A stretch of 64,000 nt of DNA from Gemmatimonadaceae bacterium (GTDB lineage Bacteria; Latescibacterota; UBA2968; UBA8231): contig JAPOZM010000108.1 of the NCBI GenBank assembly GCA_026706075.1, positions 30,685-94,684 of the forward strand, written 5' to 3'. A program made the position numbers and the translations under genes. Positions within the stretch are counted from its first letter, which is position 1. The number at the start of each line of letters is the position of its first letter. A model generated the notes under the pieces. That model saw only the letters and a list, made by a program, of their open reading frames with translations. It ran no database searches and was not told the origin of the DNA. Of the stretch, positions 2,025 to 58,534 are shown one piece after another.

Positions 2025-5000
2025 TCAGCGCAGCAGGGTGAGCTTGCGCGTGTGCACCCCCTGGGCGGTCACCAGTCGATAGAGGTAGACGCCGCTGGCC
2101 AAGTGGCGGCCCTGGTCGTCGCGGCCGTCCCAGCGCCGCTGGTGGAAGCCGGCCTTGTGCGGGCCCTCGTGCAGCACGGCCACCCGCTGGCCGGTCAGCG
2201 CGTAGACCTCCAGGCGAGCCCGGCCGTCCTGCAGCAGGAACCAGGAGATGACGGTCTGGCTGTTGAAGGGATTGGGCGCGTTCTGTTGCAGTTGCGGGCC
2301 ATCGGGCAGGCCGATCCGCTCCCGGGCCAGGGCCAGCAGCTTGGCCCGCGCCGGCTGGCCGAAGCTCTCGGCGAAGAGGAAGAAGTCGGCGAAGTCCACC
2401 GACCCGCTGTTGTCCAGGTCGAAGCGGGGATCGCTGTCGCCGAAGGCCTCGGCGAAGAGGAAGAAGTCCTCGAAGCCGGTCACGCCGTCGCCGTCGAAGT
2501 CTGGGGACGGACGCGCCGTGGCCGTGAAGGCCACCGGCTCCAGATCGGCCACGACGACCTCCACGGTGCTGGCCCCCGGCTCCCCGCTCAGGGTCAGGGC
2601 GATCGAAGCGAGGCCCGAGGCATCGGTCGTGTCCGTGGTGGAGGAGAGGGTCCCCTGGCCGTCGGTGAGCGTGAAGGTGACCGGGGCCCCTGGCAAAGGG
2701 GAGCCGTTCTGGTCGCGCACGGACACCACCAGGGAGTCCGCCAACCCGGTGCCGACCGTGCCATGCTGCAGATCGCCGCGGACCTTGGTCAGGGTCCGGG
2801 GAACGGCGCGCCCCATGGCCCTGAAGGTCACGGGGTCGAGGCCGGCCACGGTCACCACAACGGTGTTGGCCCCGGGTTGGGAGCCCAGGGTCAGGGCGGT
2901 GGAGGCGAGGCCGTTGGCGTCGGTGGTGGCGGTGCTCACGGAGAGGGCCCCCTCGCCGGTGGTGACAAGGAAGGAGACGACCGTGCCGGCCAGAGGCGCT
3001 CCCGTCTGGTCGAGGACGGAGACGACAAGGGGGCTCTGCAGGGGCTCTCCGGCCGGCGCCTCCTGTTCGAGGCCCCTGACCCTCGTCAGGGTCCAGGGAA
3101 CCGCCAGGGTCGTGGCCGTGAAGGTTACGGGATCGACCCCGTCCACCGTGACCTCGACGGTGGTCGGGCCGGGCGCGTTGCTCAAGGTCAGGGTGGTCGA
3201 GGCCTGGCCGCGGGAGTTGGTCGTCGTGCTCTCCACGGAGAGGGTTCCGTCACCGGAGGCGACTGCAAAGGTGACCTCAACGTCCTTCAACCACGCGCCG
3301 TCCTGGTCCCTTACCTCTATGACAAAGGCCTCGTCCAGGGCGAGCCCGGGCCGCCCGTCCTGCTCATCGCCGGAGAGCCTGGTCAGGCTCGTGGGATGGG
3401 GCAGGATCCGTCGCATGTCCCATACAAGCACTGCCCCGGACCCCACCACCGAAACGAAAATCGGCTGGTCGCGCGAGAAGGCCAGGAGGCCACCTGCACC
3501 CCGCACGGAGGCGATGCTCTCCTGTGTCTCGATGTCCCACACCTCGACCCCACCCCTATTGCCCTCGAAGTAGAGTCTCCTTCCATCGGGGGAGAACGTT
3601 GCGGGGCCGTAGCGGCCCCTTATCTGGTCATTGGAGACGGTGGCGAGACGGGTGGCCGTCGCCACGTTCCACAACTCGACCCTGCCTCCCCAATCCCCCC
3701 CTGCAGCAATTGGCGTCCCGTCAGGGGAAAACCCCACAGCGAGAAGGAAATCCACCGGCAGCTCAAGGGTGGCTGTCTCGTCGCCCGTGGCCACGTCCCA
3801 CAACTTGACCAATGGAGCCGTCCCGAATCCCGTCCCTTCCCCCGAAGCAAGGGTACTTCCATCGGGCGAAAACGCCACCGTTTCGACCTTGTCCGTGTGC
3901 CCATCGAGGATCCATCGGCTGTCCCCCGTCGCCGTGTTCCACAGTGTGACCGTTCCACTGCCATGACCCGAACCGACCATCGTCCCGTCGGGCGAAAAGG
4001 CGACGACGTTGACCCAGCTCCGGAATGCATGCGACTCGAAGGTGAGTGTGTTGGTGCCCGTGGCCAGATCCCAGAGCTTGATCGCCGCATCCGAGTCCCC
4101 CGAAGCAAGGGTTGTCCCATCGTGGGAGAAGGCCACGGTATTGAGCCGCAGGGTGTGTACTTCAAGAGTGGCGGTATTCCTGGCCATCGCTACATCCCAC
4201 AGGTCGATCCTTCCCGACTCGAAGGCAGAGGCGACTGTCTTCCCATCGGGCGAGAGGGCCACGGAACTGAGCCAACCCCGGTGCTCCCTCGTAAGGGTGG
4301 CGGCATCACCCGTGGCCAGATCCCACAGCAGAATCGAGCCATCATGGGATCCGGAGGCAACGGTCCTGTCGTCGGGCGCAAAGGCTACAGACCGGACCCG
4401 GGATCCGTGTCCTTCGAGAGTGGCGGTGTTGGCACCTGTCGCCACGTCCCAGAGCCTGACGGAATTGTCTGCCGCCGCCGCCCCGGAAACGAGGGTTCTG
4501 CCATCGGCGGAAAAGACCACGCTCATGACCCAACTTGTGTGCCCCTCGAGAGTGGCGGTTTCGGTGCCCGTCGCCACGTCCCAGAGTTTGATCGTGCGGT
4601 CCTTTGATGCGGAGGCAAGCACTGTCCCATCGGGCGAAAACGCCAGGGACTCGATCACGTCCTTGTGTCCTGACAGGGTGAAGATGCGACTGCCCGCAGC
4701 CACGTCCCAGAGTCCGACCGTACCTTCTGTGGTCTCGGTAGCGAGGATGGTTCCGTCAGGAGAAAAAGCAGCACGGCTGGCCATGGCCAGGCCTGTGATC
4801 TTCGCGGTATTGCCACCCGTGGCCGTATCCCAGAGGCTGATATTGCCGCTTCCCCCGGCGGCGAGGGTTGTGCCGTCAGGGGAAAACCACAGCGCGCCGA
4901 CCCAACGTTCATGTCCTCCAGGGATGGTGACGACTTGGTCTCCCGACTCCATGTCCCACAGACTGATCGTGCCCTCGCCTGCACCCGTGGCGAGAGTCCT

Positions 5001-7514
5001 GCCGTCGGCCGAGTAGGCCACGGAAGTGGCCCCCGCCGCAAGCAGTGCGTGCGGACGGAAGGTCGCCACATCGTAGAGCCAGATACCGATACCGCTGATG
5101 GCAGTGAGGTACCGACCGTCCGGGGAAAGGGAGACGGCCCTTTCAATCGAACTGAGGCTCCCCCTTCCGAACCGCACGACTGCACCCTCGGGTAGATGCC
5201 ATGTGTGGAAGTCACCCTCCATACCGGATACCTCGCTTCGGCTTCCGGTTGCACTGAACGTCACGATCTCGAGCCCGGCAATCATGGCCTCCACGGTGTT
5301 GGCTCCCGGCTCCGGCCCGAGTGTGAGGGACATCTCCGCCCGGCCGCCGGCGTCTGTCCTCACCCTTCTGAGAGTAAACCTGCCGCCGAAGTGGCCGTCG
5401 CCGTCGCTGACGGCAAAGGTGACCTCAACCCCCGGGAGCGGGTTGTCGTACTGGTCTCTCACCTCGAGGACCAACGGGTCATCCAGTTGAGCGCCTGCCG
5501 GGCCCACCTGAGTGTCTCCCGCAATGACGACCAGCCTCTTGGGGCGGGGCTGGAGCCACTCTGCCATGTCCCACAGTTCGATCGCGACATCCGACCCGGC
5601 GGCGAGGACACGGCCATCGGGCGAAAAGGCCAGGGAACTGGCGCCCTTGGCCGGCGCCCGGAGGGTGGCCAGGTTGCGGCCTCCCCCAACGTCCCAGAGC
5701 TGGACATCCCCCTGGCTCCCCCCGGAAGCGAGCAGGGTCCCATCGGGCGAGAAGACCACCGAGCTGACAGGCCGGTCGAGTCCCCCGAGGACGCTCACGC
5801 TTTCCCCCGTGGACGCATTCCACAGCCGGACCGTCGCATCATTGGACCCGGAAGCGAGGATCCTGCCGTCGGGCGAGAAGGCCACCGCATTGATGTCCGG
5901 GCCCCAGCCGTAACCCCCCGTATGCTGGACGACCGCGGTACTGGCCTGCGCCGCCATGTCCCACAGGGTGACCTGATCGCCATCGGCAGCGGCGAGGATG
6001 CCGTCCGCGGAAACGGCCACCGTGGAGGCTCCGGCCGGCAAGGTGGCCGTACGGGTGCGTGTGGTCATGTCCCACAACCAGATCTCATCGGGGTACGCGG
6101 CGGCGAGGACCGCGCCGTCGGGGGAAAAGGCCAAGGAGTGGGTCCGGGTCCCAGGTCCCTGGAGGGTGGCGAGGAACTGGCCCGTCACGGGGTTCCACAA
6201 ATCGATGTCCCGCGATGCGGCGGCGAGGGTTGGGCTGCCGGGTGAGAGGGCCAGGGCGTTGGTCCCGCCGGACAAGGGGGTTGAGGTCTGCCCGTCGATG
6301 TCCCACAGGCTGATCGCACTGAGGGAGGCCGAGGCCAGGGTGCCGTCGGCTGCAAAGGCCAAGGAGTGCACGCGGCCTGACTCCAAAGTGGAGACATGCT
6401 GCGGAGAGACCTCCCATAGATGGAACTGCAGTTGACTGGTGTTCCCGTCCTTGTCGCTGGCCAGAGCATGGATCGAATGCACGGGCGGATCGGAGAGATC
6501 GTACAGATCATAGACCGCACCCGATGGAATCACACCGTCATAGGCGAACTCGACAACGCTCTCCTTCTCACTCGTCAGTCCCTGGCAACTCTTCAGCTCC
6601 GTGCCACCGGCACCTATCGTGTGTGTCCATCTCGTGGGAACGATCAGCCTTACCTGGTGGAGCCCGTCAGCGTCGCCGACCCTGAGCCGAACAGGGACGC
6701 TCTCAGACCCTGCTGGATAGCCAGGTGAGGAGATGACCTCGATGGCCGGGGGCTGATCTTCCTCCACTCCAATCTCGGGGTTGAGATACGAGTGCACGGC
6801 CAGATGGGTGGCAGCACATGCGGACAGAGCCCTCCGAGCCTCCTGTCCATAGGACATGATGTAGGCATTGTCGTGGAAGTTGTGAGCCAGTCCGAACACG
6901 TGGCCGAGTTCATGGGCCGTCGTCTGCCAGGAAGCTCCTGCCGATACCACCGCGGCACCACTCTGCTTCGACCACCGGGCGGCCTTCCCCCAGGCGGATC
7001 TGCTGATCCGGTCTGAGAGATTGTCGATGACGAGAATACTGATATTCCTCGATAGATCGAATGTCTGAGCAATCTCTTCGTACATCGAGGAGAATGTACC
7101 GTCGAGATAGTGGCTGTCCGGGTGTTGGCCGTCCACGCGGTGGACCACGGGCTCGCCAGTGTCGTCGGTCTCATAGTCAAAGGTCTTGTAGCCGTATCCG
7201 TGAGCCTCCATCTGCTCGCCGTAGAAGGCTTGGATCGTAAGGATCTCATCCTTCATCTTCTGGATGACTTCCTCGCGGACAGGGCGGTCATTGGGCAGGA
7301 AGTAGAACATCCGCACCGTGCGGGGCTCGCCGGCGTTCCGGTCCGCCAGTCGCTTTCCCGCGCTTTGGATCTCGAGGTCCTGCAGCTCGAGATCGAGGAC
7401 CTGGCAGAAGTGCAAGCTGTCTGGGGGAGGGACGGTTGCCTGGACCACCGAGGCCGGCCGGGAGATCAAGCCAAGCAAGGCAAGACAGGCCAGGTGATGA
7501 ACGGCAGGTTTCAT
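2025..7514 (-). CDS. Giant secreted multidomain protein (1829 aa). It combines a metzincin-type Zn-metalloprotease domain, 7 WD40 repeats, a Big_1-like Ig domain, 14 more WD40 repeats, about three Big_1-like Ig domains, a dockerin/EF-hand-like pair, and a C-terminal T9SS/FlgD-Ig-type sorting domain.
   Basis: ATG at 7512-7514 follows AGGAG. The signal peptide is MKPAVHHLACLALLGLISRPASVVQA. HELGHVFGLAHNF (nt 6900-6914 encode HELGH) plus IMSYG gives HExxHxxGxxH with a Met-turn. I counted 21 hand-counted xLW(D/N) WD40 ends with SPDG cores. VTFAVSDGDG and VTFTLTDGQG are Big_1-like units. DFDGDGVTGFEDFFLFAEAFG and DLDNSGSVDFADFFLFAESFG form the dockerin-like pair. The C-terminus reads NAPNPFNSQTVISWFL...GVYLYRLVTAQGVHTRKLTLLR. 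Confidence 0.85.
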   Translation of the reverse strand: MKPAVHHLACLALLGLISRPASVVQATVPPPDSLHFCQVLDLELQDLEIQSAGKRLADRNAGEPRTVRMFYFLPNDRPVREEVIQKMKDEILTIQAFYGEQMEAHGYGYKTFDYETDDTGEPVVHRVDGQHPDSHYLDGTFSSMYEEIAQTFDLSRNISILVIDNLSDRISRSAWGKAARWSKQSGAAVVSAGASWQTTAHELGHVFGLAHNFHDNAYIMSYGQEARRALSACAATHLAVHSYLNPEIGVEEDQPPAIEVISSPGYPAGSESVPVRLRVGDADGLHQVRLIVPTRWTHTIGAGGTELKSCQGLTSEKESVVEFAYDGVIPSGAVYDLYDLSDPPVHSIHALASDKDGNTSQLQFHLWEVSPQHVSTLESGRVHSLAFAADGTLASASLSAISLWDIDGQTSTPLSGGTNALALSPGSPTLAAASRDIDLWNPVTGQFLATLQGPGTRTHSLAFSPDGAVLAAAYPDEIWLWDMTTRTRTATLPAGASTVAVSADGILAAADGDQVTLWDMAAQASTAVVQHTGGYGWGPDINAVAFSPDGRILASGSNDATVRLWNASTGESVSVLGGLDRPVSSVVFSPDGTLLASGGSQGDVQLWDVGGGRNLATLRAPAKGASSLAFSPDGRVLAAGSDVAIELWDMAEWLQPRPKRLVVIAGDTQVGPAGAQLDDPLVLEVRDQYDNPLPGVEVTFAVSDGDGHFGGRFTLRRVRTDAGGRAEMSLTLGPEPGANTVEAMIAGLEIVTFSATGSRSEVSGMEGDFHTWHLPEGAVVRFGRGSLSSIERAVSLSPDGRYLTAISGIGIWLYDVATFRPHALLAAGATSVAYSADGRTLATGAGEGTISLWDMESGDQVVTIPGGHERWVGALWFSPDGTTLAAGGSGNISLWDTATGGNTAKITGLAMASRAAFSPDGTILATETTEGTVGLWDVAAGSRIFTLSGHKDVIESLAFSPDGTVLASASKDRTIKLWDVATGTETATLEGHTSWVMSVVFSADGRTLVSGAAAADNSVRLWDVATGANTATLEGHGSRVRSVAFAPDDRTVASGSHDGSILLWDLATGDAATLTREHRGWLSSVALSPDGKTVASAFESGRIDLWDVAMARNTATLEVHTLRLNTVAFSHDGTTLASGDSDAAIKLWDLATGTNTLTFESHAFRSWVNVVAFSPDGTMVGSGHGSGTVTLWNTATGDSRWILDGHTDKVETVAFSPDGSTLASGEGTGFGTAPLVKLWDVATGDETATLELPVDFLLAVGFSPDGTPIAAGGDWGGRVELWNVATATRLATVSNDQIRGRYGPATFSPDGRRLYFEGNRGGVEVWDIETQESIASVRGAGGLLAFSRDQPIFVSVVGSGAVLVWDMRRILPHPTSLTRLSGDEQDGRPGLALDEAFVIEVRDQDGAWLKDVEVTFAVASGDGTLSVESTTTNSRGQASTTLTLSNAPGPTTVEVTVDGVDPVTFTATTLAVPWTLTRVRGLEQEAPAGEPLQSPLVVSVLDQTGAPLAGTVVSFLVTTGEGALSVSTATTDANGLASTALTLGSQPGANTVVVTVAGLDPVTFRAMGRAVPRTLTKVRGDLQHGTVGTGLADSLVVSVRDQNGSPLPGAPVTFTLTDGQGTLSSTTDTTDASGLASIALTLSGEPGASTVEVVVADLEPVAFTATARPSPDFDGDGVTGFEDFFLFAEAFGDSDPRFDLDNSGSVDFADFFLFAESFGQPARAKLLALARERIGLPDGPQLQQNAPNPFNSQTVISWFLLQDGRARLEVYALTGQRVAVLHEGPHKAGFHQRRWDGRDDQGRHLASGVYLYRLVTAQGVHTRKLTLLR

Positions 7515-7661
7515 GATCCGGGCTCCTGGTTGTGGCGATTCGGACTCCGCGGTGGCGGAACGTGTCAATCTTGAGGCGCGCATTCGATGGTGTTCGGAGG
7601 CGGGTTGATCCACACTTCGGCCGGGACGCCTGCGCGCCACTGTAGAAGCCGGGCAACAAGG

Positions 7662-10600
7662 CTACTCCAGCGTGATGGCAGTCGGGATGTCCAGTCCGGT
7701 AACGAGATCCTTGATGTCCGATCCATCGAGGTCTGCGCTTTGGATCTTGCGAGTCCCGCTGTCGGTCCAGTACATCCTGCCTCCATCCAGATCCAGGGCC
7801 ATTCCCCTGGGCGTGCCCAGTGCGGTGACGAGATCCTCAACATTGGATCCGTCGAGATCGGCGCGCTGGATCTTTCCTGCCATGGCATCTGTCCAGTACA
7901 TCCGGTTCCCGTCCACATCCAGGGCCAGTCTGTCAGGGTCGTTCAGTCCGGTGGTGACGAGATCCTGCACGTCCGATCCGTCGAGGTTGGCCCGCTGGAT
8001 CTTGTCCGTGCCTTGATCCACCCAGTACATTTTTCCTCTCGAAACATCCAGGGCCAGGCCCCTTGGCGTGGTCAATCCACTTGTGACAAGGTCTTCGAGG
8101 TTGGAGCCGTCGAGGTTGGCCCGGCGGATCCTGTCCAATTCCATGTCCGTCCAATACATCTGGCCAGCCGTCAAGTCCAGGGCCAACCCCACGGGGTATC
8201 TCAATCCAGTGATGATGAGGTCTTCGACTTGGGACCCATCGAGGTTGGCCCGTTGGATCTTGTCCGTGCCATGGTCGGTCCAGTACATCTTGCCTTCGGT
8301 CAGATCGAGGGCAATGTCAATGAGATGCACCAATCCGGCTGTAACCAGGTCTTGCACGTTGGATCCGTCGAGGTTGGCCCGCTGGATCTCGTCCCGCGAG
8401 CCGGAGTTCGTCCAGTACATCCTCGCTTTCTCGGATATACGGAAGGTATAGGTCCGCAGAACCGCCTGATCCGAGACCCAATCCGAGACCCTGCGCAACT
8501 CCACCCTGGCCTCTCCCGGCTCGCAGGCGGCCAGGTAGACGGACTGCCCGTGGTAGCGGGTGAGGCTGGCCTCCGCCTGGGCCGGGCACGGACCGGCATC
8601 CTCTCCAGATGGGGCGATCAGGATTCGAGGGGGGCTGCCGGTGGGGTTGGCGACCACGACGACCGGCTCGGTAGCCTGGACCTCGAAGCGGCGCCAGGTC
8701 CCGCTCCGGTGCAAGGCCACCGAGGCCGGGTTCGGGGTCAGGGAGGCGAAGGGATTGGCCAGGGCCAGGCCGGTGGGGCTGCCGGTTGATCTGGTGAGAA
8801 GGGTCTCGACGTTGGATCCGTCGAGATCCGCCCTCCCGATCTTCCGGGTCCCGGCGTCGGCCCAGTAGATCTTGCCGCTGGCCAGATCCAGGGCCAGCCC
8901 CTTGGCGATGCTCAGTCCCGTGGTGACAAGGTCTTCGACATCGGACCCGTCGAGGTCGGCCCGCTGGATCTTGTCGGTGCCGTAGTCGGTCCAGTAGATC
9001 TTGCCGGCCCCCGTATCGAGGGCCAGGTCGCCGGGGATCTTCAGGCCGGTGGAGATCAGGTCTTCGACGTTGGATCCGTCGAGGTCTGCCCGCTGGATCT
9101 TGTTGGTGCCGTAGTCGGACCAGTAGATCTTGCCGCCGGCCACGTCCAGTGCCAGACCCTCGGGGCTGTGGAGGCCGACGGAGACCAGGGTCTGGACGCG
9201 GGAGCCGTCGAGGTCGGCGCGCTGGATCCGGTTGGATCCGGCGTCGGTCCAGTAGATGTGGCCCCGGTCCCGGTCCAGGGAGAGGGCCACGGGCCGGATC
9301 AGCCCGGAGTTGACGACGGCCGCCGTCTCGGAGCCGTCGAGGTTGGCGCGCCAGATCCAGCGGCTGCCCTGGTCGGTCCAGTAGACGTGGCCCTCCACCA
9401 CGTCGACGGCCAGGCTGCGGGGCGAGCCGAAGGCGACGATGTCTTCGACGTTGGCCCCGTCGGGGTCGGCGCGCTGGATCTTGTCGCCGGTGGTCCAGTA
9501 GATCGTGGCGGTCCCCGGGCCGGTGGTCGCGGCCGGGACCTCCTCGATGGTGAAGGTGTAGGTCCTCAGGAGGGTCTGGTCGGAGGCCTTCCGCAACTCC
9601 ACCTTGGCCGGGCCGGCTTCGCAGCCGGACAGATAGAGGGTCTGGCCGTCGCTGCGGGTTACGCTGTCCCGGGCCACGGCGGGGCATCGGTTGGAGTCCC
9701 CGCCGCTGCCTGTGATCTCTGCCCTCGGGGTGGAGCCGGTGGGGTTGGCCACGACGACGACGGACTCGCTGGCCTGGACGGTGAAGGCGTGCCAGGCGCC
9801 GTCGTCGAGGATGTCCACTGATGACGGGTCGGGCGACAGCGTGGCCGACGCAGGGGCGGCTTCCCCGGGCATCGATATGGCCAGGGCCAGTGCCGTGGGC
9901 CCGCCCAGGCCGGTGGTGACGAGGCCCTCGACATTGGACCCGTCGAGGTCGGCGCTCTGAATCCTGTCCGGCTCGATTTCGGTCCAGTACATCCTGCCAC
10001 CATCCAGATCCAGGGCTATGCCCCGGGGTTGGCCCAGTTCAGTGACGAGGTCTTCCACCTTGGAGCCGTCGAGATCAGCGCGCTGAATCTTCCCCAGGCC
10101 GGACTCGGTCCAGTAGATCTTCCCCCCCTCCAGATCCAGGGCCAGTTTGTCGGGGACGGCCAGGCCGGTGGCGACGAGATCCTGCACGTCAGATCCGTCG
10201 AGGTTGGCCCGCTGGATCTTGTCCGTGCCATGATCCGCCCAGTACATCTTGCCTCTCGCAATGTCCAGGGCCAGGCCCCTCGGCGTGATCAATCCCCTTG
10301 TGACAAGGTCTTCGATGTTGGATCCGTCGAGGTTGGACCGCTGGATCTTGTCGGTGTTCAAATCCGTCCAGTACATCTTTCCCGCGGTCAGATCGAGGGC
10401 GAGGCCCGAGGGATAGTCCAGCGTGGTGATGAGGTCTTCGACATTGGATCCGTCGAGGTTGGACCGCTGGATCTTGTCCGTCTCCTGATCCATCCAGTAC
10501 ATCTTGCCTTCCGTGAGATCCAGGGCAATGTCACTCGGAGCCCTCAATCCAGTCGTTACCAGGTCTTCCACGTTGGATCCATCGAGGTTGGCTCTTTGAA

Positions 10601-11597
10601 TCTTGTCCGAGATGGAGTCCGTCCAGTACATCCTGGAATCGCGGTCGGGCTCGTCCTGCTCCCCGATCTGCTGAAGAACGAACTGGGTAACGATGAGCCA
10701 GACGTCGATGTAGTCGATCTGGCCATCGCGGTTCATGTCGGCCTGCGAGATGTCGCCGTTGTTGGGCATGGTGACGGAGTTGTCGGCGATGTACGTGGCC
10801 ACCAGCAGGGCGTCCACGATGTCGACCCGGCCGTTGTTGTCCACGTCGCCCGGTACGCCATTGGAGGCGGCTTTCTCCCGTGGGGCCAGGCCGGCCTCTT
10901 CGACCACGAGGTCCACGGGGACCATCCCGGTCTCCACTCGGAAGGCGGGGTCCACGTAAGGGGCCAGTCCCGGGCCGGTGACGGTCAAACCATACACGGC
11001 CGTACCCACCGCTGACGCCTCGGCGCCAGGAGGAGTGCCGCTCGGCATCCCCTGCGGGGCCGGGATCCCGGCCTGCCCGTCCACCAGGACCATGCGTCCG
11101 GTGGCCACCCTCGGCCCGCTTTGCAGCCGGTAGAGATAGACCCCGGCCCCCACGGCCCGCCCCCCGGCATCGGTCCCGTCCCAGCGGGCATGGTGAAAGC
11201 CGGCGGGCTGCACCTCCTCCACCAGCGTGGCGATCCGCTGGCCAAGGAGGTTGAACACCTCGAGGCGCACGGGCGCGGGGGACGGCAGCTGATAGGGGAT
11301 CAGGGTGGAAGGGTTGAAGGGGTTGGGGTAGTTCGGTCCGATGGAGAAACGCTCCGGCAACGCCGAGGGTGCTGCCAGGCCCTCCAGGGACAGCGCGAAT
11401 CGGCCGACCTCGTCCGTCGCGGCAGAGGACAACAGGCGGAACTCGGACAGCTCGAAGAGCCTCACCTGGGCACCGGGGACCGCGGCCCCGGAGGGCAGCC
11501 GTACCCGGCCCTCGAGGGAACCTGCGGCCCCGGTCGCGTCGGTCAGGCCGAGGAGTGCAAGACAACCGATAGCCCATTTCGTGGTTCCGATGCTCAT
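7662..11597 (-). CDS. Large secreted protein (1311 aa). It has a CarboxypepD_reg-like domain, an internal N-terminal T9SS/FlgD-Ig-like domain and a dockerin-like pair. These are followed by three six-bladed YWTD (LDL-receptor class B) beta-propellers separated by two about 100-aa two-Cys spacer domains.
   Basis: ATG at 11595-11597 follows AAGGA. The signal-like N-terminus is MSIGTTKWAIGCLALLGL. NYPNPFNPSTLIPYQLP...GVYLYRL lies at aa about 84-172. GDVDNNGRVDIVDALLVATY and DMNRDGQIDYIDVW form the dockerin-like pair. There are 18 repeats of (M/I)YW(T/A/S)D...KIQRA(N/D)LDGS.VEDLV in three groups of six, at about nt 9873-10634, 8754-9509 and 7665-8426. Confidence 0.85.
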   Translation of the reverse strand: MSIGTTKWAIGCLALLGLTDATGAAGSLEGRVRLPSGAAVPGAQVRLFELSEFRLLSSAATDEVGRFALSLEGLAAPSALPERFSIGPNYPNPFNPSTLIPYQLPSPAPVRLEVFNLLGQRIATLVEEVQPAGFHHARWDGTDAGGRAVGAGVYLYRLQSGPRVATGRMVLVDGQAGIPAPQGMPSGTPPGAEASAVGTAVYGLTVTGPGLAPYVDPAFRVETGMVPVDLVVEEAGLAPREKAASNGVPGDVDNNGRVDIVDALLVATYIADNSVTMPNNGDISQADMNRDGQIDYIDVWLIVTQFVLQQIGEQDEPDRDSRMYWTDSISDKIQRANLDGSNVEDLVTTGLRAPSDIALDLTEGKMYWMDQETDKIQRSNLDGSNVEDLITTLDYPSGLALDLTAGKMYWTDLNTDKIQRSNLDGSNIEDLVTRGLITPRGLALDIARGKMYWADHGTDKIQRANLDGSDVQDLVATGLAVPDKLALDLEGGKIYWTESGLGKIQRADLDGSKVEDLVTELGQPRGIALDLDGGRMYWTEIEPDRIQSADLDGSNVEGLVTTGLGGPTALALAISMPGEAAPASATLSPDPSSVDILDDGAWHAFTVQASESVVVVANPTGSTPRAEITGSGGDSNRCPAVARDSVTRSDGQTLYLSGCEAGPAKVELRKASDQTLLRTYTFTIEEVPAATTGPGTATIYWTTGDKIQRADPDGANVEDIVAFGSPRSLAVDVVEGHVYWTDQGSRWIWRANLDGSETAAVVNSGLIRPVALSLDRDRGHIYWTDAGSNRIQRADLDGSRVQTLVSVGLHSPEGLALDVAGGKIYWSDYGTNKIQRADLDGSNVEDLISTGLKIPGDLALDTGAGKIYWTDYGTDKIQRADLDGSDVEDLVTTGLSIAKGLALDLASGKIYWADAGTRKIGRADLDGSNVETLLTRSTGSPTGLALANPFASLTPNPASVALHRSGTWRRFEVQATEPVVVVANPTGSPPRILIAPSGEDAGPCPAQAEASLTRYHGQSVYLAACEPGEARVELRRVSDWVSDQAVLRTYTFRISEKARMYWTNSGSRDEIQRANLDGSNVQDLVTAGLVHLIDIALDLTEGKMYWTDHGTDKIQRANLDGSQVEDLIITGLRYPVGLALDLTAGQMYWTDMELDRIRRANLDGSNLEDLVTSGLTTPRGLALDVSRGKMYWVDQGTDKIQRANLDGSDVQDLVTTGLNDPDRLALDVDGNRMYWTDAMAGKIQRADLDGSNVEDLVTALGTPRGMALDLDGGRMYWTDSGTRKIQSADLDGSDIKDLVTGLDIPTAITLE

Positions 11598-12043
11598 TCT
11601 GCAATCCTTGTCTGGAGACGGCCTCAGCAGGGTCGGCTCTGGAAGACGTTGGGCCGCTGCTGCTCGTGGAGCGAGGCCGTCTGACCGGCCTCGATCGCCT
11701 GTTCGTACTCCTGGCGCGTCTGTGGCGGGCGGCATGGCCCCGATACCTGCCTGGGAAGGGAACGCAAGAAGCGTGCCTTCAGCTCTCGCCGCGCATCGTC
11801 TCTCGACTGCCCTCGCGGCGACTCGATCGACAATCCTTCCAGTTTCCTGGACAACCAGTGCCTCACAGGCCGGACTCGTCCGGTTTCCCGGACAGGTACG
11901 GCGCGACCGCCCGCGAACCGAAGGCCCCGAGACGCCCGGCGCTCACCTCGACCACGTCGAGATGCCGCGCCGTGGATCGTAGCGGCCGACGACCGACTCC
12001 TTGTGATCGAAGGATGCAGGTTCGTGGTGGTCCATTTCCCAAC

Positions 12044-51052: not shown

Positions 51053-51056
<4 letters not shown>
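50490..51056 (-). CDS. trpG: Anthranilate synthase component II (class I glutamine amidotransferase).
   Basis: Motifs are [23 protein letters not shown], the catalytic Cys in GVCLGHQ, and GVQFHPES. The ATGA overlap with the trpE stop is present. Confidence 0.9.
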
Positions 51057-52615
<1,559 letters not shown>

Positions 52616-52949: not shown

Positions 52950-53165
52950 ATGTCCCGGATTGCCGTAAGTGTATCCACCGAACTCCTCGAAGCGGTAGAC
53001 AGAGCCGCCGGCGAGCTCGGTCGAAGCCGCGCCGAAATCGTCCGGCAGGCGCTGGAACGCTATCTGGAGGACTTCGACGACCTCGCTGTTGCCACGGAAC
53101 GGCTCCGCGATCCGGCCGACCCGGTCTTGGAGTGGGATCGGGTCCGGCAAGGACTGCTCGGATAG
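52950..53165 (+). CDS. Ribbon-helix-helix (CopG/RelB-type) DNA-binding protein, antitoxin-like, with no recognisable cognate toxin.
   Basis: ATG at 52950 follows GGGGAGGGAG. MSRIAVSVSTELLEAVDRAAGELGRSRAEIVRQALERYLED is the RHH beta-alpha-alpha pattern. The C-terminal tail is LRDPADPVLEWDRV. Confidence 0.75.
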   Translation: MSRIAVSVSTELLEAVDRAAGELGRSRAEIVRQALERYLEDFDDLAVATERLRDPADPVLEWDRVRQGLLG

Positions 53166-53328
53166 GACTTGGGGTGGCGGACCCCTCCGCTGTCCGCCGC
53201 GCTGGTTGACAGGGTCATCTCTGCCAATGACCTTGCCAGTGGACAGCTTGACGCTACCATGTTGCCACCAACCTCCCTTGGCCGACAATCGCCCCGGGTG
53301 ACGGGGTTGAGCAATCGGACATAGGCCG

Positions 53329-54324
53329 ATGTCACCGACCGGAGATCCGTCCTCAGTTTCAAGCACCCCTTTGCTGTTGGCGCGCCAGCGCACCCTCCTG
53401 GCACTGCTGCATGCACTCGGCGGCAACGTAGGGAATCTGGACTTTCAGAAGCTCCTGTTCCTCTACTGCAAGCAGCTTTGCACCGACACCGATGGTCCCC
53501 GCATCAGTCCTTACGAATTCGTGCCATACAGATTCGGCGCCTTCTCCTTCACCTGCTACGCCGATCGCAGACGCCTCATGGAGCAGGGTCTGCTCATGGA
53601 TGACAGCCAGAAGTGGGTGCTCTCCGAACACGGCACCGGGATAGCGGAGGCATCGCACGACAGGGGGATGAGCGCATTCGCGCATCGATATCAGGGACTC
53701 CGGGGCCATGCCCTCATCGCCGAGACCTACCGGCGGTACCCCTACTATGCAATACGGAGTGAAGTCGCCGGGGATGTGCTCGGCAAAGACAGCATAGCAC
53801 TCAGCAGGATCCTGGAAGCCCGCCCTGTCGCCAGCTCTTCTCAGCTCTTCACCATCGGGTACCAAGGTCGGACCCTGGAGAGCTATCTGAGTGTGCTGAT
53901 TCAACAGGGCGTGACCCTACTCTGCGACGTTCGAAAGAACGCCATCAGCCGCAAGTACGGATTTTCCAAAAGGACCCTTGCCCGGGCGTGCGAGGGCGTC
54001 GGGATTCGCTATGAGCATCTTCCCGAGCTTGGGATCGAATCACGTCAGCGCAAGGGTCTCAAGACGCCCTCGGAGTTCAAGGCTCTCTTCAGCTCCTACG
54101 AGCGGTCCATCCTGCCGCAACAGGAGGCCGCCCTTGACAGGATCCGCGCCTGGCTGCGAGCCGGAGATTCCGTAGCCCTCACCTGCTTCGAGCGTGAAGC
54201 TGGACAGTGTCATCGGCATTGTGTAGCGGGTACCCTTGCCCAGGTGTCCGAGTCCATAGACCACTCCGATGGCTCGACAGGTGCCGAGCTCGATGATCAG
54301 GGATATATCGCACGACATCTATGA
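53329..54324 (+). CDS. Fusion protein: an uncharacterised N-terminal domain (about 160 aa, possibly winged-helix or Panacea/SocA-like) plus a C-terminal DUF488 domain.
   Basis: The DUF488 signature is LFTIGYQGRTLESYLSVLIQQGVTLLCDVRKNAISRKYGFSKRTLARACEGVGIRYEHLPELG ... VALTCFEREAGQCHRHCVAGTL. This matches TIGh...f...L...gi..l.DVR..P.S....f....L...gi.Y.....LG ... LlC.E.....CHR. The N-terminal domain contains LDFQKLLFLYC and YEFVPYRFGAFSF. GC is lower than in the flanks. Confidence 0.8.
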   Translation: MSPTGDPSSVSSTPLLLARQRTLLALLHALGGNVGNLDFQKLLFLYCKQLCTDTDGPRISPYEFVPYRFGAFSFTCYADRRRLMEQGLLMDDSQKWVLSEHGTGIAEASHDRGMSAFAHRYQGLRGHALIAETYRRYPYYAIRSEVAGDVLGKDSIALSRILEARPVASSSQLFTIGYQGRTLESYLSVLIQQGVTLLCDVRKNAISRKYGFSKRTLARACEGVGIRYEHLPELGIESRQRKGLKTPSEFKALFSSYERSILPQQEAALDRIRAWLRAGDSVALTCFEREAGQCHRHCVAGTLAQVSESIDHSDGSTGAELDDQGYIARHL

Positions 54325-55148
54325 CAGCCACGGAGAAGCACCGGATCCTCGTCACAGTCAAGACCTACCCGACCCTGTCCACCAAGTACGGCGAGACGGT
54401 CTGCACGGCAGGTGTCAGAGAGGACGGGACATGGGTACGCATCTACCCTGTGCCCTTCCGCCGATTGGGGGAGGCCGAGCAGTACCGCAAGTTCGACTGG
54501 ATCGAGTGCCGGCTCAAGCGCAGGGATCGTGACCCTCGGCCTGAGTCCTTCAGTCCGGTCGGCGAGCTCACTCCCGTCGGACACGTCGGCACTTCCGATA
54601 GGTGGAGTGAACGGCGACGCATACTGCTCAAGACCGCCAGAGTCTACGACACGCTCTCAGAGCTCATTGCCGCGGCCAAGGGAAATGTGGCTTCCCTGGC
54701 GGTATTCAAACCCACGAGGATAACCGACTTCATCTGGGAAGACGAGGATCGGGAGTGGTCGCAGCATCGACTCGACCAAATGCGGGCCCTGCATAGCCAG
54801 CTTCCCCTGTTTGAGGAAGATCCTTGGCGTCAGACCTTCCGACTCCTCCAGAAGCTACCCTACGCCTTCTCCTATCGGTTCGAGGATGCAACCGGACGAT
54901 CCAGCAAACTCCAGGTTCTGGACTGGGAAGTCGGCGCCCTCTACTGGAAATGCTTGAAGTCGACGAATGGTGACGAGGGCGCAGCTCTCTGCAAGGTTCG
55001 TGACAAGTACTACCAGGAGTTCCTCAAGACCGATCTTCACTTTTTCCTTGGCACAACCCAGCAGTTCCACCAAGTCGGGCCGAATCCGTGGGTCATAGTC
55101 GGTGTGTTCCCGATTCCCCACGATCCTCAGCAGCGGCTCTTCGACTAG
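54321..55148 (+). CDS. Conserved-looking hypothetical protein (275 aa) with no domain I can name. It is translationally coupled to the DUF488 fusion.
   Basis: ATG at 54321 overlaps the upstream TGA (ATGA). The N-terminus is HRILVTVKTYPTLSTKYGETVCTAGVREDGTWVRIYPVPFRRL. The composition is globular and non-repetitive. GC was about 60% on one hand-counted line. Confidence 0.75.
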   Translation: MTATEKHRILVTVKTYPTLSTKYGETVCTAGVREDGTWVRIYPVPFRRLGEAEQYRKFDWIECRLKRRDRDPRPESFSPVGELTPVGHVGTSDRWSERRRILLKTARVYDTLSELIAAAKGNVASLAVFKPTRITDFIWEDEDREWSQHRLDQMRALHSQLPLFEEDPWRQTFRLLQKLPYAFSYRFEDATGRSSKLQVLDWEVGALYWKCLKSTNGDEGAALCKVRDKYYQEFLKTDLHFFLGTTQQFHQVGPNPWVIVGVFPIPHDPQQRLFD

Positions 55149-55168
55149 CCGTTCCGCTCGGGGAGTTC

Positions 55169-55195
55169 GGGGGCAAGGGAGGCTGTGCAGCCCCC
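55169..55195. terminator. Weak hairpin between convergent genes; possible bidirectional terminator.
   Basis: gggggc (55169-55174) pairs with gccccc (55190-55195), with a 15-nt loop. The flanking T/A tracts are short. It lies in a 49-nt convergent gap. Confidence 0.25.
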
Positions 55196-55197
55196 CT

Positions 55198-56478
55198 TCA
55201 GCCCACCATCTCCTCCACCGCCGCCGCCAGCCGGTCCACCTCGGCCTCGTCGTTGTAGATGTGGGTGGAAACGCGGAGAGCGTTGTAGCTCTCCCTCTCC
55301 ACGTCCGGGCCGGGGACGAAGGCGTAGGTCCCCTGGGGGACCTTGACGGCCATGTCGTGCTCCTCCAGGAGCCGGCGCGCCAACAGACTTGCGCTCAGGC
55401 CGTCGACCGAGAAAGTGAGGATTCCCCCGGAGAGCTCGGGCTGCGCCGGAGTGAGGATCCTCACCTTCGGGATCCCCTCGAGATGCTGTCGCAGGCGGGC
55501 GCTCAGCTCCCGGCAGCGAGCCTCGACGAGATCCCGGCCGAGGAGGTTGTGGAAGTCCATGGCCACCCCGTGGCCCAGGATGCCGGCCACGTCGCGGGTG
55601 CCGGACGACGCGGAGTAGCCCCCGTATCCGGAGTGCAGGAAGACGGGGTGGACGCGGTCCTGCACCTCCCGGCGGATGTAGAGCAGGCCGCTGCCCTTCG
55701 GAGCCAGCATCCACTTGTGGCTGCTCGAGGCGAAGGTGTCGACGCCGAGAGCCTTCACGTCGACGTCGAGCATCCCCGGGGATTGAGCGCCGTCGCAGAC
55801 GAGCAGCACGCCCCGGGGCCGGGTGATCCGGGCCACGTCGGCCAGGGGATAGCGCAGGCCCGTGATCGTGTCGACGTCCATGAAGCTGCAGACCCGCGTG
55901 CGGGGAGTCAGGTGCTGCTCGACGAGGTCGAGGAAGTCGTCCTTGTGACGCAGGAGAGTGGGCATCTTCAGGTATCTCACGGCGACACCGCGGTGCTTCC
56001 TCAGGTGCTGCCAGCAGACCATGCCGCCGCCGTGCTCGTGGTTGGTGGTGAGCACCTCGTCCCCCGGCTCCCAGTCGATGCCGGTGGCGACGCCGTTCAT
56101 GCCCTCGGTGGTGTTGCGCGTGAGGGCGATCTCCGACACGTCCGCCCCGAGGAAGCCGGCGGCCAGACGGCGGACATCCTCCATCCGGCTCCCCAGTCCG
56201 CCGAAGGTGTTCTTCACCGGATCGCCTTCGAGCTCCTGGTCGTACCGGGCCACGGCCTCGGTGACGACCTTCGGCGCGGCGCCGCAGCTCCCGGTGTTGA
56301 AGTGCGCGAGGCCCGGCCTCAGCCGGAACTCCCGCCGCAGCCGTCTCCACCGCGAGGCTCCCTCTCCCACGGCCTGGAGATCCTTCCCAAGCTCCTCCAG
56401 CCCGTGGGCGCCGGCTGACAGCCCGGGCCAGGGCAGGCTGGCAGCGGCCACGGTCTTGACGAACCCCCGTCGTTCCAT
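55198..56478 (-). CDS. Aminotransferase class V-fold PLP-dependent enzyme with a twin-arginine (Tat) signal.
   Basis: MERRGFVKTVAAASLPWPGLSAGAHG matches the (S/T)RRxF(L/V)K Tat consensus. FASSSHKWMLAPKGSGLLY is the PLP-Lys region. The fold looks like class V / isopenicillin-N-epimerase. The ATGA overlap with the upstream stop is present. Confidence 0.8.
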   Translation of the reverse strand: MERRGFVKTVAAASLPWPGLSAGAHGLEELGKDLQAVGEGASRWRRLRREFRLRPGLAHFNTGSCGAAPKVVTEAVARYDQELEGDPVKNTFGGLGSRMEDVRRLAAGFLGADVSEIALTRNTTEGMNGVATGIDWEPGDEVLTTNHEHGGGMVCWQHLRKHRGVAVRYLKMPTLLRHKDDFLDLVEQHLTPRTRVCSFMDVDTITGLRYPLADVARITRPRGVLLVCDGAQSPGMLDVDVKALGVDTFASSSHKWMLAPKGSGLLYIRREVQDRVHPVFLHSGYGGYSASSGTRDVAGILGHGVAMDFHNLLGRDLVEARCRELSARLRQHLEGIPKVRILTPAQPELSGGILTFSVDGLSASLLARRLLEEHDMAVKVPQGTYAFVPGPDVERESYNALRVSTHIYNDEAEVDRLAAAVEEMVG

Positions 56479-57410
56479 CAGGAGGTGACCACCTCGGCGT
56501 CGATGAGCCGGCTGCCGGCGCCGGTGGTGACGCAGTAGCTGAAGCCGCCGGAGGTACCCGCGCCGCCAGTGCGGCCCTGCCTGTCGAGGGCGATGAAGAA
56601 GCAGGAGAGCTGCTCCGCCGGGCGCGGGTCACGGCGCAGGATGTGGCGCACCGCCTCCTCGCAGGCCGACTGCGGATCGGCGCCGCGCGCCATCAGGTCG
56701 ACGACGCGGTACGAGCCGCAGTAGCGCATGATGCTCTCGCCGAGGCCGGTAGCCCCGGCGGCCCCGACGTCCCCGTCCACGTAGAGTCCGCCGCCGACGA
56801 TCGGCGAGTCGCCCACCCGGCCCGGCCGCTTGTACCCCTGGCCGCTGGTGGAGCAGCCGCCGGCCAGACGGCCGTCAGCTCCCCGGCCGAGCAGCGCGAT
56901 CGTGTCGTGGCTCTCCGAGATCGACGGCGGCTCCCGCCGATCCCGGCGCCAGGCCTCCCAGCGGTGGCGGCGGTCCTCGGTCAGCAGATCCGCGGACTCG
57001 AACCCCTCGGAAAGCGCGAAGCGCCGGGCACCGTCGCCGACGAGCATCACGTGGGGCGTGACCTCCATCACCCGGCGGGCCACGGAGATAGGATGGGCGA
57101 TCCCCTCCAGGGCGGCGACGCTCCCGGCCCTCTGCCCGTCTCCGTCCATGAAACAGGCGTCGAGCTGCACCACCCCGTCGGCGTTGGGCGTGCCTCCGAG
57201 GCCGACGGAGTGCTCCTCGGGGTCCGCCTCGACGACGCGGATGCCCTGCTCCACCGCGTCCAGCAGGCCGCCCGTGTCCAGCGTCCTGACGGCGGTCTCG
57301 TTGGCGGCCCGGCCGAAGGCCCAGGTGGAGACGAAGACGGCGCCGCTCCGGGGGGATGAAGCCGGCCCGCCGCGATGGGACGCCACTCCGCGCGCCCCCT
57401 CCGCCCTCAC
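56478..57410 (-). CDS. Asparaginase-2 family Ntn-hydrolase (glycosylasparaginase / isoaspartyl peptidase-like).
   Basis: Motifs are VFVSTWAFG, SVGLGGTPNADGVVQLDACFMDG, HDTIALLG (with the autoprocessing Thr) and GRVGDSPIVGGGLY. The proposed GTG at 57408-57410 overlaps the upstream TGA. An alternative GTG lies 24 nt downstream. Confidence 0.8.
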   Translation of the reverse strand: MRAEGARGVASHRGGPASSPRSGAVFVSTWAFGRAANETAVRTLDTGGLLDAVEQGIRVVEADPEEHSVGLGGTPNADGVVQLDACFMDGDGQRAGSVAALEGIAHPISVARRVMEVTPHVMLVGDGARRFALSEGFESADLLTEDRRHRWEAWRRDRREPPSISESHDTIALLGRGADGRLAGGCSTSGQGYKRPGRVGDSPIVGGGLYVDGDVGAAGATGLGESIMRYCGSYRVVDLMARGADPQSACEEAVRHILRRDPRPAEQLSCFFIALDRQGRTGGAGTSGGFSYCVTTGAGSRLIDAEVVTS

Positions 57411-58534
57411 CCCTCCAGGATCTCCCGCACCCGGCGCGCGATCTCGGCCTCGTCGCCGTCCTGGACCGTGTACATGGAGAACCCCACCGAGGCGCCCGCG
57501 CCGTGGGCCCAGATCGAGGGGTTGCCCTGCTCCAGGAGATCCGCCAGGCCGGCGCCGTCGACGGGGGCTTCCGCTCCCAGGATCAGCCCCAGGCTGGTGA
57601 CGCTGTCGCCGTCGGCCGGCACCAGGCCCACACCCGGCAGTCCGGCGAGCCGGTCGCGCAGAGCCCGGCCCCGGCGGCTGGCCGCCTCGTCCCGCGCCGC
57701 CTGGGTCTCCTCCCGCAGCCACTCCCGCAGGGCGGCGACGACCCCCACCACCTCCTGGCGGTCGATCTTCAGGGGCCGGCCGTAGCCGGCGAAGTCCCGC
57801 CGCTCGAAGGCGGCGAAGGCGTGGGCCCGGGCGGCCTCGACGAGGTCCCGGCGGCCACACAGCAGGCCGGAGGAGTTCGGCGCGCCGAAGTACTTGGCGC
57901 CGAAGCCGACGAGATCGGCGCCGCAGGTGGCGAAGTGGCGGAACACGTCGAGGGGCTGCACGCGCCAGGCGGCGTCGGCGATCACCGGGACGCCGGCCTC
58001 CCCGGCGATCTCCAGGACCTCCTCGAGGGACAGGAACCCCTCGGGCTCGGCGACGCAGGGATAAAGGACGGCGGCGGTGCCGCCGCCCAGGGCGGCCTGG
58101 AAGTCGTCGCGGGTGCTGGACTCGGGTGTTCCTGACTCGACGAGGCGCGCGCCGGTCATGCGCACGACGCGGTCGTACTTGTAGCGCTGGGGCGCCTGGA
58201 TGATCACCTCGGCCTTCAGGCCGGAGGTGTCCGGGAGCCGGGACATGAGCTCCGGGTCGTCGCCGGTGATGCAGGCGGCCGTGCCGAGGACCAGGGCCGC
58301 GGCGCAGCCGGGGGTCACCAGGGCCGCCTCGCAGCCGAGCAGGCCGGAGACGACGCGGCCGCTGCCGGCCAGCAGCTGGTCCATGTCGACGTAGTAGCGG
58401 CTGGACAGCTCCATGGCGGCCGCCACCGTCGGCGAGGGCGCCGAGCCCCCGAGCATGGTGAGGTTGCCCTTGGCGTTGATCACGGGCACGGCGCCCAGGT
58501 CGGCATAGAGGTCTCGGGCCTGCGTCGGGTCCAC
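57407..58534 (-). CDS. SelA-family PLP-dependent enzyme (L-seryl-tRNA(Sec) selenium transferase-related / DgaE-like).
   Basis: The motif GADLVGFGAKYFGAPNSSGLL corresponds to the SelA S-G-D-K-L-L-G-G-P-Q-x-G Lys loop. The N-terminus contains VINAKGNLTMLGGS. The GTG at 58532-58534 is preceded by AAGGAGAG. Confidence 0.7.
   Translation of the reverse strand: MDPTQARDLYADLGAVPVINAKGNLTMLGGSAPSPTVAAAMELSSRYYVDMDQLLAGSGRVVSGLLGCEAALVTPGCAAALVLGTAACITGDDPELMSRLPDTSGLKAEVIIQAPQRYKYDRVVRMTGARLVESGTPESSTRDDFQAALGGGTAAVLYPCVAEPEGFLSLEEVLEIAGEAGVPVIADAAWRVQPLDVFRHFATCGADLVGFGAKYFGAPNSSGLLCGRRDLVEAARAHAFAAFERRDFAGYGRPLKIDRQEVVGVVAALREWLREETQAARDEAASRRGRALRDRLAGLPGVGLVPADGDSVTSLGLILGAEAPVDGAGLADLLEQGNPSIWAHGAGASVGFSMYTVQDGDEAEIARRVREILEG

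Follow-up and report, generated by a model that had tools for sequence, protein, structure and literature searches.

A low-GC island in a Latescibacterota genome carries the candidate phage-defence pair PDC-M19, a DUF488 fusion protein coupled to a protein with a predicted tandem-OB fold

The DNA analysed here, referred to as the window, is a stretch of 64,000 nt from contig JAPOZM010000108.1 (assembly GCA_026706075.1, Latescibacterota), and contains an island of three genes on the + strand, with open reading frames (ORFs) at 52950-53165 (71 aa), 53329-54324 (331 aa) and 54321-55148 (275 aa). An earlier note, made from the sequence letters alone, had described these three ORFs, the ATGA overlap between the second and third, and the flanking trp and convergent genes, all of which we confirmed, and had presented the island as a candidate three-gene system without a name. 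We find that genes 2 and 3 almost certainly represent PDC-M19, a phage-defence candidate of PADLOC, and that this pair probably plays a part in genetic conflict, as a defence or, less likely, a counter-defence system, while the first gene falls outside the conserved module.

Results and discussion

Identity of the gene pair

The pair is an already catalogued candidate, since PADLOC-DB v2 has full-length models for both proteins, and the expectation that it would prove not to be a named system was thus not borne out. Gene 2 (PDC-M19A, 331 aa, 53329-54324, + strand) combines a DarG C-terminal domain (CTD)/Panacea-like N-terminal domain with a DUF488 domain, and matched PADLOC model PDLC04505 with an E-value of 1.9e-96 over aa 17-307 of 331 (profile positions 2-285 of 294). 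Gene 3 (PDC-M19B, 275 aa, 54321-55148, + strand), which is tandem-OB-like (oligonucleotide/oligosaccharide-binding), matched PDLC04508 with an E-value of 4.1e-105 over aa 6-274 of 275. Both proteins also have PHROGs families, of unknown function (phrog_14939, 1.3e-41 for gene 2; phrog_25907, 2.4e-61 for gene 3). With full-length matches of both proteins to the M19A and M19B models, and with the genes adjacent and on the same strand, there is no structural difference from PDC-M19; the window copy stands alone, beside trpE, and has a ribbon-helix-helix (RHH) gene as an extra neighbour. Our literature search found no paper describing or testing PDC-M19. The PDC entries of PADLOC are unvalidated candidates, partly derived from 'guilt by embedding' (PMC12988326), a rationale which fits the embedding of many homologous loci in restriction-modification (RM) operons.

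The stop codon of gene 2 and the start codon of gene 3 share an ATGA (54321-54324, + strand), read directly in the sequence, which indicates translational coupling of the two genes. The conservation of this arrangement was surveyed in 80 genome loci with gene 3 homologs from many phyla, and a DUF488 gene directly adjoins the gene 3 homolog in nearly all informative loci, in line with the earlier view of genes 2 and 3 as coupled partners. The commonest form has the fused M19A upstream on the same strand with a gap mostly of -10 to +35 nt, and most homologous loci show either the ATGA overlap or a gap of a few nt. Two further arrangements were detected, one with a short DUF488-only gene upstream of M19B (loci L067-L069), and one with a convergent DUF488 gene of 150-160 aa which overlaps the 3′ end of M19B (L041, L075 and L077). 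The convergent form is also present on plasmids pYS1 (Burkholderia cepacia) and pRL8 (Rhizobium johnstonii 3841) and on a Pseudomonas plasmid, as well as in Nymphadora-type Gordonia phages. Homologs are numerous, with 3332 found for gene 2, and 3659 for gene 3 in a large protein collection (2219 clusters at 50% identity). The identity of gene 3 is 60-88% in Latescibacterota, Acidobacteriota, Verrucomicrobiota, Chloroflexota, Myxococcota, Gemmatimonadota and Nitrospirota, approximately 50% in Bacteroidota, and 35-40% in Planctomycetota and Rhizobium. The survey supports genes 2 and 3 being an obligate, tightly coupled pair, as judged from gene order.

In the phage form, gene 42 of Gordonia phage Nymphadora (NC_031061.1, 33833-34285; L084:5822-6274, - strand) is annotated as 'HipA toxin' and actually encodes a DUF488 protein (PF04343, 1.2e-29), which is convergent with and overlaps gene 43, the M19B homolog. 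This probable mis-annotation presumably recurs in the related phages Eviarto, BatStarr, TimTam and Herod. The 'immunity repressor' gp44 of the Gordonia phage was considered as M19A homolog and rejected, having only a helix-turn-helix (HTH) domain; the DUF488 gene is the convergent gp42. An M19B-like gene with 30% identity was also found on the Sulfolobus islandicus plasmid pSOG2 (L086:4998-5864; also NC_010597.1), beside an integrase gene. No DUF488 partner was detected at this locus of an archaeal conjugative plasmid, with the 168-aa ORF downstream of the M19B-like gene being rejected as DUF488 for lack of similarity, and the Sulfolobus plasmid form is possibly a DUF488-independent variant.

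The M19A protein

The DUF488 domain of gene 2 spans aa 183-302 (53875-54234, + strand) and is a clear match to PF04343 (1.8e-25, 90.4 bits versus a cut-off of 22.2), as had been recognised in the earlier note. It also resembles the 'active DUF488-N3' subclade (PF22751), more weakly than PF04343. Conserved motifs in the domain are TIGY(E/Q)G, DVRxN..S.KYGF, HLPELGI and ALTC(F/Y)E...QCHR (alignment A2), and residues C286, E288, C294, H295 and R296 are invariant or near-invariant among 38 homologs. Enzymes of the rhodanese-phosphatase superfamily use a cysteine for phosphate transfer. DUF488 was reportedly put into this superfamily in the 2023 in-silico work of Burroughs and Aravind, who are also said to have predicted DNA-end processing for members of the DUF488 clade. 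A literature search on DUF488 gave passing mentions only and no experimentally established function, and as far as this search goes the earlier statement that its biochemical role is unknown still applies.

The first ~170 residues of gene 2 have no Pfam assignment. An AlphaFold2 (AF2) model of aa 15-171 (53371-53841, + strand) has a predicted local distance difference test (pLDDT) score of 94.4, and is helical and winged-helix-like. When this model was compared with the PDB using Foldseek, the best matches were 7yk3_D (E-value 2.7e-3, template modelling (TM) score 0.59) and then 7yk3_B (TM 0.50), with probability 1.00, followed by PadR/MarR winged-helix regulators with TM scores of 0.39 or lower. 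The profile of the N-terminal domain likewise matched 7yk3_B, the Mycobacterium tuberculosis DarG CTD, with an E-value of 0.06 over the conserved QKL.F...F.P...G..S motif; a sequence search with full-length M19A against solved structures gave nothing meaningful. The SocA_Panacea family (PF13274) was matched below threshold in 6/38 gene 2 homologs, at best with 7.5e-5 over profile positions 22-113, and the two highest scores were 23.4 and 22.8 bits versus a gathering score of 25.7. Two distant homologs from a Planctomycetota clade (P0420 and P0425) have a precomputed PF13274 match. It is thus supported at the fold level that the N-terminal domain is Panacea/DUF4065-like and folds as the toxin-binding CTD of DarG does, and the Panacea/SocA likeness proposed in the earlier note stands for the predicted fold, and does not extend to Pfam membership of the window protein.

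Two M19A homologs have deviating structures. P0456 (508 aa), a homolog of the Planctomycetota-clade M19A, has an extra AbiEi_4 (PF13338) antitoxin/regulator domain, and this predicted fusion is a further tie of the M19A family to components of toxin-antitoxin and abortive infection systems. In a gammaproteobacterial metagenome-assembled genome (MAG), the M19A homolog (L014:7088-7957) is frameshifted and has lost the region with the C..E/CHR motif, while the adjoining M19B gene is apparently intact. If this frameshift is real rather than an assembly error, it would argue against DUF488 catalysis being essential to tolerate M19B.

The M19B protein

No Pfam or NCBIfam match was obtained for gene 3, and a sequence search with its profile (A1) against solved structures gave nothing meaningful. 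The earlier statement that it lacks a domain that can be named is accurate for these domain collections, with the qualification that PADLOC and PHROGs families exist and that an OB-like fold can be modelled. The AF2 model, built with 77 diverse homologs, has a pLDDT of 94.6 and a predicted TM score (pTM) of 0.91. Foldseek searches returned only OB-fold nucleic acid binders from the PDB (archaeal RPA filament, CST, Teb1 and HIN-200 domains), and baculovirus LEF-3 and phage single-stranded DNA-binding proteins (SSBs) from a viral library. These matches had E-values of ~1e-4 to 1e-2 with global TM scores of only 0.2-0.3, and matches to single barrels of ~90 residues (ribosomal S12, phage SSB and RecO OB folds) had root mean square deviations of 4-6 A.

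The first OB-like barrel comprises aa 6-88 (54336-54584, + strand; secondary structure from the AF2 model), and the second half of the protein has six further strands with helices in between. In the 77-sequence alignment A1, residues P17, A30, G31, R40, D71, R73, E75 and W202 are invariant, and the near-invariant residues include K14, T15, Y16, C28, K57, W60, W95, R98, D201 and E203. Most of the invariant residues are located in the first barrel (K14 T15 Y16 P17, C28 T29 A30 G31, R40, K57 W60, D71 R73 E75), and the protein as a whole is basic. The DuOB family (PF22557, gathering score 27 bits) had no match to the window protein at E ≤ 5, matched 2/77 homologs at 4e-3, and gave sub-threshold scores of 18.6-18.7 bits with the M19B homologs of the Gordonia phages and the Sulfolobus plasmid, which makes a distant relationship between gene 3 and DuOB plausible. 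At the level of fold and profile, M19B is shown as a predicted protein with two OB-like barrels, resembling proteins that bind single-stranded DNA (ssDNA) or DNA ends; the modelled protein is OB-like and unusually constrained, with no recognisable catalytic fold.

Genomic context of homologous pairs

When two flanking ORFs per side were tallied for the pair in 27 loci, mostly RM genes were identified, with HsdS (6), HsdM (5-8), HsdR (4) and ResIII (4), and ~9/27 loci being RM-adjacent. The pair is found within gene orders such as hsdM-hsdS-M19A-M19B-hsdR (L047), HipA_C-HIRAN-M19AB-hsdR (L025), type III mod-DUF2806-M19AB-res (L002) and DUF1156 methylase-M19AB-DUF499 (L079). In another lineage its surroundings are a variable patch with toxin-antitoxin genes (ParE, PhdYeFM and PIN) and an ImmA/IrrE-type protease. 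Gordonia prophages carry the pair in the lysogeny module, between the immunity repressor and the integrase, and the M19B and DUF488 genes are located beside primase/helicase-type transfer genes on pRL8, and beside replication/partition genes on pYS1. The patchy distribution over multiple phyla, the embedding in RM operons and the carriage on plasmids and prophages are hallmarks of a conflict system and support the pair being a mobile module, as the earlier note had suspected from the window.

Comparison with known systems

The DarG-CTD/Panacea domain binds and silences the cognate toxin in both the DarTG and PanAT systems. DarG is a dual-mode antitoxin which reverses the DNA modification and also binds DarT (PMC8832971), and the DUF4065/Panacea proteins are homologous to its C-terminal inhibitor domain (PMC13621843). 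According to the title of the 7YK3 structure paper (Deep et al. 2023; in the reference list of PMC12170906), the DarG CTD inhibits DarT by ssDNA mimicry. M19A similarly has an enzyme-like domain and a domain with the DarG-CTD fold (7yk3, TM 0.59), parallel to the DarG macrodomain and CTD, and its partner is predicted to be of an ssDNA-directed type. In contrast to DarTG, Pfam and PADLOC scans of the three window proteins showed neither a macrodomain nor a DarT ADP-ribosyltransferase fold, the enzyme domain of M19A is a DUF488 domain in a C-terminal rather than N-terminal position, the partner is dual-OB, the putative neutraliser gene is the first of the pair, and the M19A N-terminal domain is basic. 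Lacking both the ADP-ribosyltransferase and the macrodomain, the window pair is not a member of DarTG, and carrying over ssDNA mimicry from the DarG CTD to the basic M19A N-terminal domain was rejected.

The likeness to PanAT (Kurata et al. 2022, PMC8832971) lies in the putative neutraliser gene being upstream of and overlapping the partner gene, and in the PF13274 matches of M19A N-terminal homologs (best 7.5e-5, and precomputed in two). In the window, however, M19A is under the Pfam cut-off, the Panacea-like domain is fused to an enzyme-like domain, and M19B is outside the recognised toxin folds. No mention of DUF488 was found in those parts of PMC8832971 and its supplements that were available. 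M19A of the window is a clear member of PF04343, and the score of divergent M19B homologs with DuOB (18.6 bits versus 27), a family for which the literature search gave no relevant paper, is consistent with the tandem-OB model; with scores below the cut-offs, the window proteins are not formal members of the Panacea or DuOB families. The anticodon nuclease PrrC is an example of an accessory gene in type I RM loci. The position of homologous pairs between hsdS and hsdR or between mod and res is reminiscent of PrrC and of the Hma-embedded candidates of PADLOC (PMC12988326), whereas there is no relation in sequence or fold to these RM-embedded accessories, and the window copy is located outside an RM locus. 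By analogy, the window pair resembles DarTG and PanAT in architecture, and probably also in logic.

Proposed function and alternatives

Our preferred reading, towards which we lean with some reservation, is that the pair is a DNA-directed conflict module, either toxin-antitoxin-like or an accessory to RM systems. A more specific mechanism, modelled on DarTG, can be put forward only tentatively. M19B would then be an effector directed at nucleic acid: it would bind the ssDNA or DNA ends of an element that is invading or replicating, and might also damage or block them. M19A would be a bifunctional neutraliser which restrains M19B in the uninfected cell. The DarG-CTD-like domain would bind M19B directly, the DUF488 domain may strip a phosphate- or ribose-phosphate-type group from nucleic acid, and the translational coupling via ATGA would fix the M19A:M19B stoichiometry. 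Pairs inside type I or type III RM operons may serve as back-up or accessory to restriction. The most far-reaching version, with PDC-M19 as a new DarTG-like dual-mode toxin-antitoxin or abortive infection system, in which a dual-OB ssDNA-directed effector is restrained by the Panacea-like domain and its effect reversed or pre-empted by DUF488, seems unlikely in its entirety.

Several observations weigh against an effector-neutraliser module. The window M19A protein itself has no match to PF13274 (DUF4065) at E ≤ 5, and its N-terminal domain is basic (median net charge +5, pI ~9.3) and is therefore not an obvious ssDNA mimic, with a nucleic acid-binding winged helix fitting equally well. M19B matches only non-enzymatic OB binders, at global TM scores of 0.2-0.3 and with no catalytic fold, and it may be a sensor or targeting subunit instead of a toxin. 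The DarG-CTD-like domain is missing in L067-L069 and in the plasmid and phage forms, and direct neutralisation is therefore not essential to the core function of DUF488 and M19B, while the convergent gene order of the plasmid and phage forms would be unusual in a toxin-antitoxin pair. The window copy and that of Stigmatella are situated among housekeeping genes, with no defence neighbours. In favour of M19B as effector, disrupted copies among the genome loci affected M19B alone in five cases, M19A alone in one and both in one, which weakly suggests that M19B is the partner that carries the cost; these disrupted copies are in MAGs, and may be assembly errors.

The roles may instead be reversed, an alternative that we regard as possible, if on the unlikely side. 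M19B would then be a non-toxic clamp on ssDNA or DNA ends which recruits M19A, with DUF488 as the effector removing or transferring a terminal phosphate or ribose-phosphate at nucleic acid ends, for instance those cut by the neighbouring restriction enzyme, and the winged-helix-like N-terminal domain helping to bind DNA or M19B; the outcome would be that repair of cut phage DNA is blocked, or that self-inflicted damage is tidied. The persistence of the DUF488-M19B link without the DarG-CTD-like domain points to the enzyme and the OB protein as the true core, M19A, M19B and the N-terminal domain are all basic, M19B resembles binders and not enzymes, and the pair is frequently embedded in RM operons. 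The DNA-end processing reportedly predicted by Burroughs and Aravind agrees with this reading, as does the sister family DUF4326, for which a role in processing terminal phosphates of ADP-ribose-type sugars has been predicted (PMC9503650). However, the best structural and profile matches of the N-terminal domain are to a toxin-neutralising domain and not to ordinary DNA-binding winged helices, and M19B seems to do more than bind passively, given its many invariant acidic, basic and aromatic residues and its identity of 60-88% between phyla. We retain the reading of M19B as effector and M19A as its neutraliser as the working model.

The earlier note had included the first gene of the island (52950-53165, + strand, 71 aa) in the system, as a CopG/RelB-type protein. 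Its product is indeed a CopG-type RHH protein (RHH_1, PF01402, 1.2e-9), whereas the RelB assignment was not sustained, with a score of 38.9 bits for the RelB-like NCBIfam model NF048017 (cut-off 50). The 163-nt spacer between the RHH gene and gene 2 contains no toxin-sized ORF on the + strand, as was noted before, so that neither the model score nor the gene context identifies the protein as a RelB/ParD-type antitoxin. That the RHH protein would serve genes 2 and 3 as their own regulator or antitoxin in a three-gene system is consistent with its position 163 nt upstream on the same strand, its weak RelB-like similarity, its presence with the pair in all three related genomes, and its low GC content at third codon positions (GC3) of 0.71, which is like that of the rest of the island and suggests that it too was acquired. 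The RHH gene adjoins the pair solely in the nearest relatives of the window (L001 and L081/L082), though, and not in ~75 other loci, with RHH hits in L002 and L004 being ~4.5 kb distant, and it therefore does not belong to the conserved module. The spacer also has promoter-like sites of its own and is weakly conserved even among close relatives: three promoter-like sites were found in the region versus 0.5 expected from shuffled sequences, and two of these, overlapping σ70-like matches at 53233-53289 (+ strand) which are consensus matches only, may be a separate promoter for the gene pair. With separate RHH-ParE modules present near the pair in another lineage, the simplest reading of the window RHH is a remnant antitoxin without a toxin, which may have been reused for local regulation, and thus a lineage-specific neighbour. 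A three-gene system is accordingly quite improbable.

The carriage of M19B and DUF488 pairs on conjugative plasmids (pRL8 and pYS1) and in temperate Gordonia phages could also reflect counter-defence or establishment of mobile elements, where the pair would protect or repair incoming DNA or undo modifications inflicted by the host, leaving the chromosomal copies as remnants or domesticated forms. A parallel is provided by phages carrying orphan DarG-like enzymes as anti-DarTG factors (PMC11825919). The fused form as found in the window is, on the other hand, overwhelmingly chromosomal and repeatedly located inside RM operons, a placement typical of defence accessories, and the phage pair is part of a lysogeny module expressed from the prophage, which is typical of prophage-encoded defence. 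We regard counter-defence as very unlikely, and continue with a defence-type conflict module as the preferred reading.

Composition and history of the island

The island is flanked by trpE (51053-52615, - strand), with a promoter-like site matching the consensus at 52901-52873 (- strand), and by a convergent aminotransferase class V gene (55198-56478, - strand). GC content is 0.58-0.62 over 53200-55200, versus 0.68-0.77 in both flanks, and the GC3 of 0.70 for gene 2 and 0.74 for gene 3, similar to that of the RHH gene, differs from the 0.89-0.95 in trpD, trpG, trpE and the two downstream genes with a secure reading frame (that of the convergent aminotransferase and the next one). The lower GC content that had been estimated by hand thus holds for the codon positions too, and supports a foreign composition and horizontal acquisition of the island. 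We searched the island borders for marks of integration, and found neither flanking direct or inverted repeats beyond short ones at chance level, which settles an earlier suggestion to look for direct repeats, nor a tRNA gene or Rfam element. Between the stop codons of M19B and the convergent aminotransferase gene lies a spacer of 49 nt (55149-55197, GC 0.74) with complementary G-run and C-run stretches (GGGGGC...GCCCCCC), which could form a shared bidirectional terminator hairpin, missed by a simple terminator scan because it has no T-run.

A scan of the 64-kb window in 2.2-kb windows gave only two GC troughs, the island and one near 6300. The latter (6100-8500, GC ~0.60) covers the 5′ ends of two huge ORFs on the - strand, both secreted-looking, of which one (2025-7640, 1871 aa) resembles a WD40-type repeat protein in translation and the other (7662-11735, 1357 aa) has abundant YWTD-like repeats.

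The order trpE-RHH-M19A-M19B-aminotransferase is common to the window, L001 (a Latescibacterota MAG) and L081/L082. Nucleotide identity to the window is 90-94% (L001) and 85-92% (L081) for the flanking genes, compared with 89.6% and 80.6% for the RHH gene, 81.5% and 79.6% for M19A, and 88.7% and 81.6% for M19B. The shared order and these identities place the three island genes in the common ancestor, with vertical inheritance since, and the island genes evolved faster than their flanks, M19A fastest. The earlier note had pointed to synteny with native composition in related genomes as an argument against an acquired module; synteny is indeed present, while the composition is equally non-native, the island being just as low in GC in L001. 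This genome is the closest relative of the window and carries an IS630-like transposase gene immediately downstream of M19B (L001:8903-10008, CBDCSU010000005.1), split into an HTH ORF and a DDE ORF and probably frameshifted. The window lacks this insertion, and the site adjacent to the island was therefore hit by a mobile element in the sister genome. A search for empty sites among 80 metagenome loci with aminotransferase homologs, all at most 65% identical, gave no informative empty site, with neither trpE nor the island adjacent in any of these. That the pair serves in DNA repair or metabolism as a housekeeping function, with a low GC content by chance, has the housekeeping neighbours in the window and Stigmatella and the conserved synteny in three related genomes in its favour, and is hardly credible given a GC3 deficit of more than 0.15 relative to all neighbours, the patchy distribution with high identity across unrelated phyla, the carriage on RM operons, plasmids and prophages, the faster divergence relative to the flanks, and the IS630-like element directly adjoining the pair in L001.

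Downstream of the aminotransferase gene, an asparaginase-family gene is called as two ORFs of 112 and 199 aa in L081/L082 (L081:12629-13625). Its counterpart in the window is a single long ORF (56478-57860) with a long Arg/Pro/Gly-rich N-terminal extension, which is probably the result of a mis-called start.

Conclusions

The island would be flagged automatically by PADLOC, and is neither a new kind of system nor a surprise to a PADLOC user. What is added here is the DarG-CTD/Panacea-like domain in M19A and the tandem-OB fold predicted for M19B, which turn a PADLOC candidate into a concrete and cheaply testable hypothesis. Culturable sources of the pair are available in Rhizobium johnstonii 3841 (pRL8), Burkholderia cepacia (pYS1), Stigmatella, Niabella aurantiaca DSM 17617 and Gordonia phage Nymphadora. 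DUF488 is a very widespread domain, and the pair has thousands of homologs, is strikingly well conserved from phylum to phylum, and recurs in RM operons. If the DarTG-like dual-mode reading is true, it would provide the first experimentally testable biochemical role for DUF488, and a new class of toxin for Panacea-type neutralisers.

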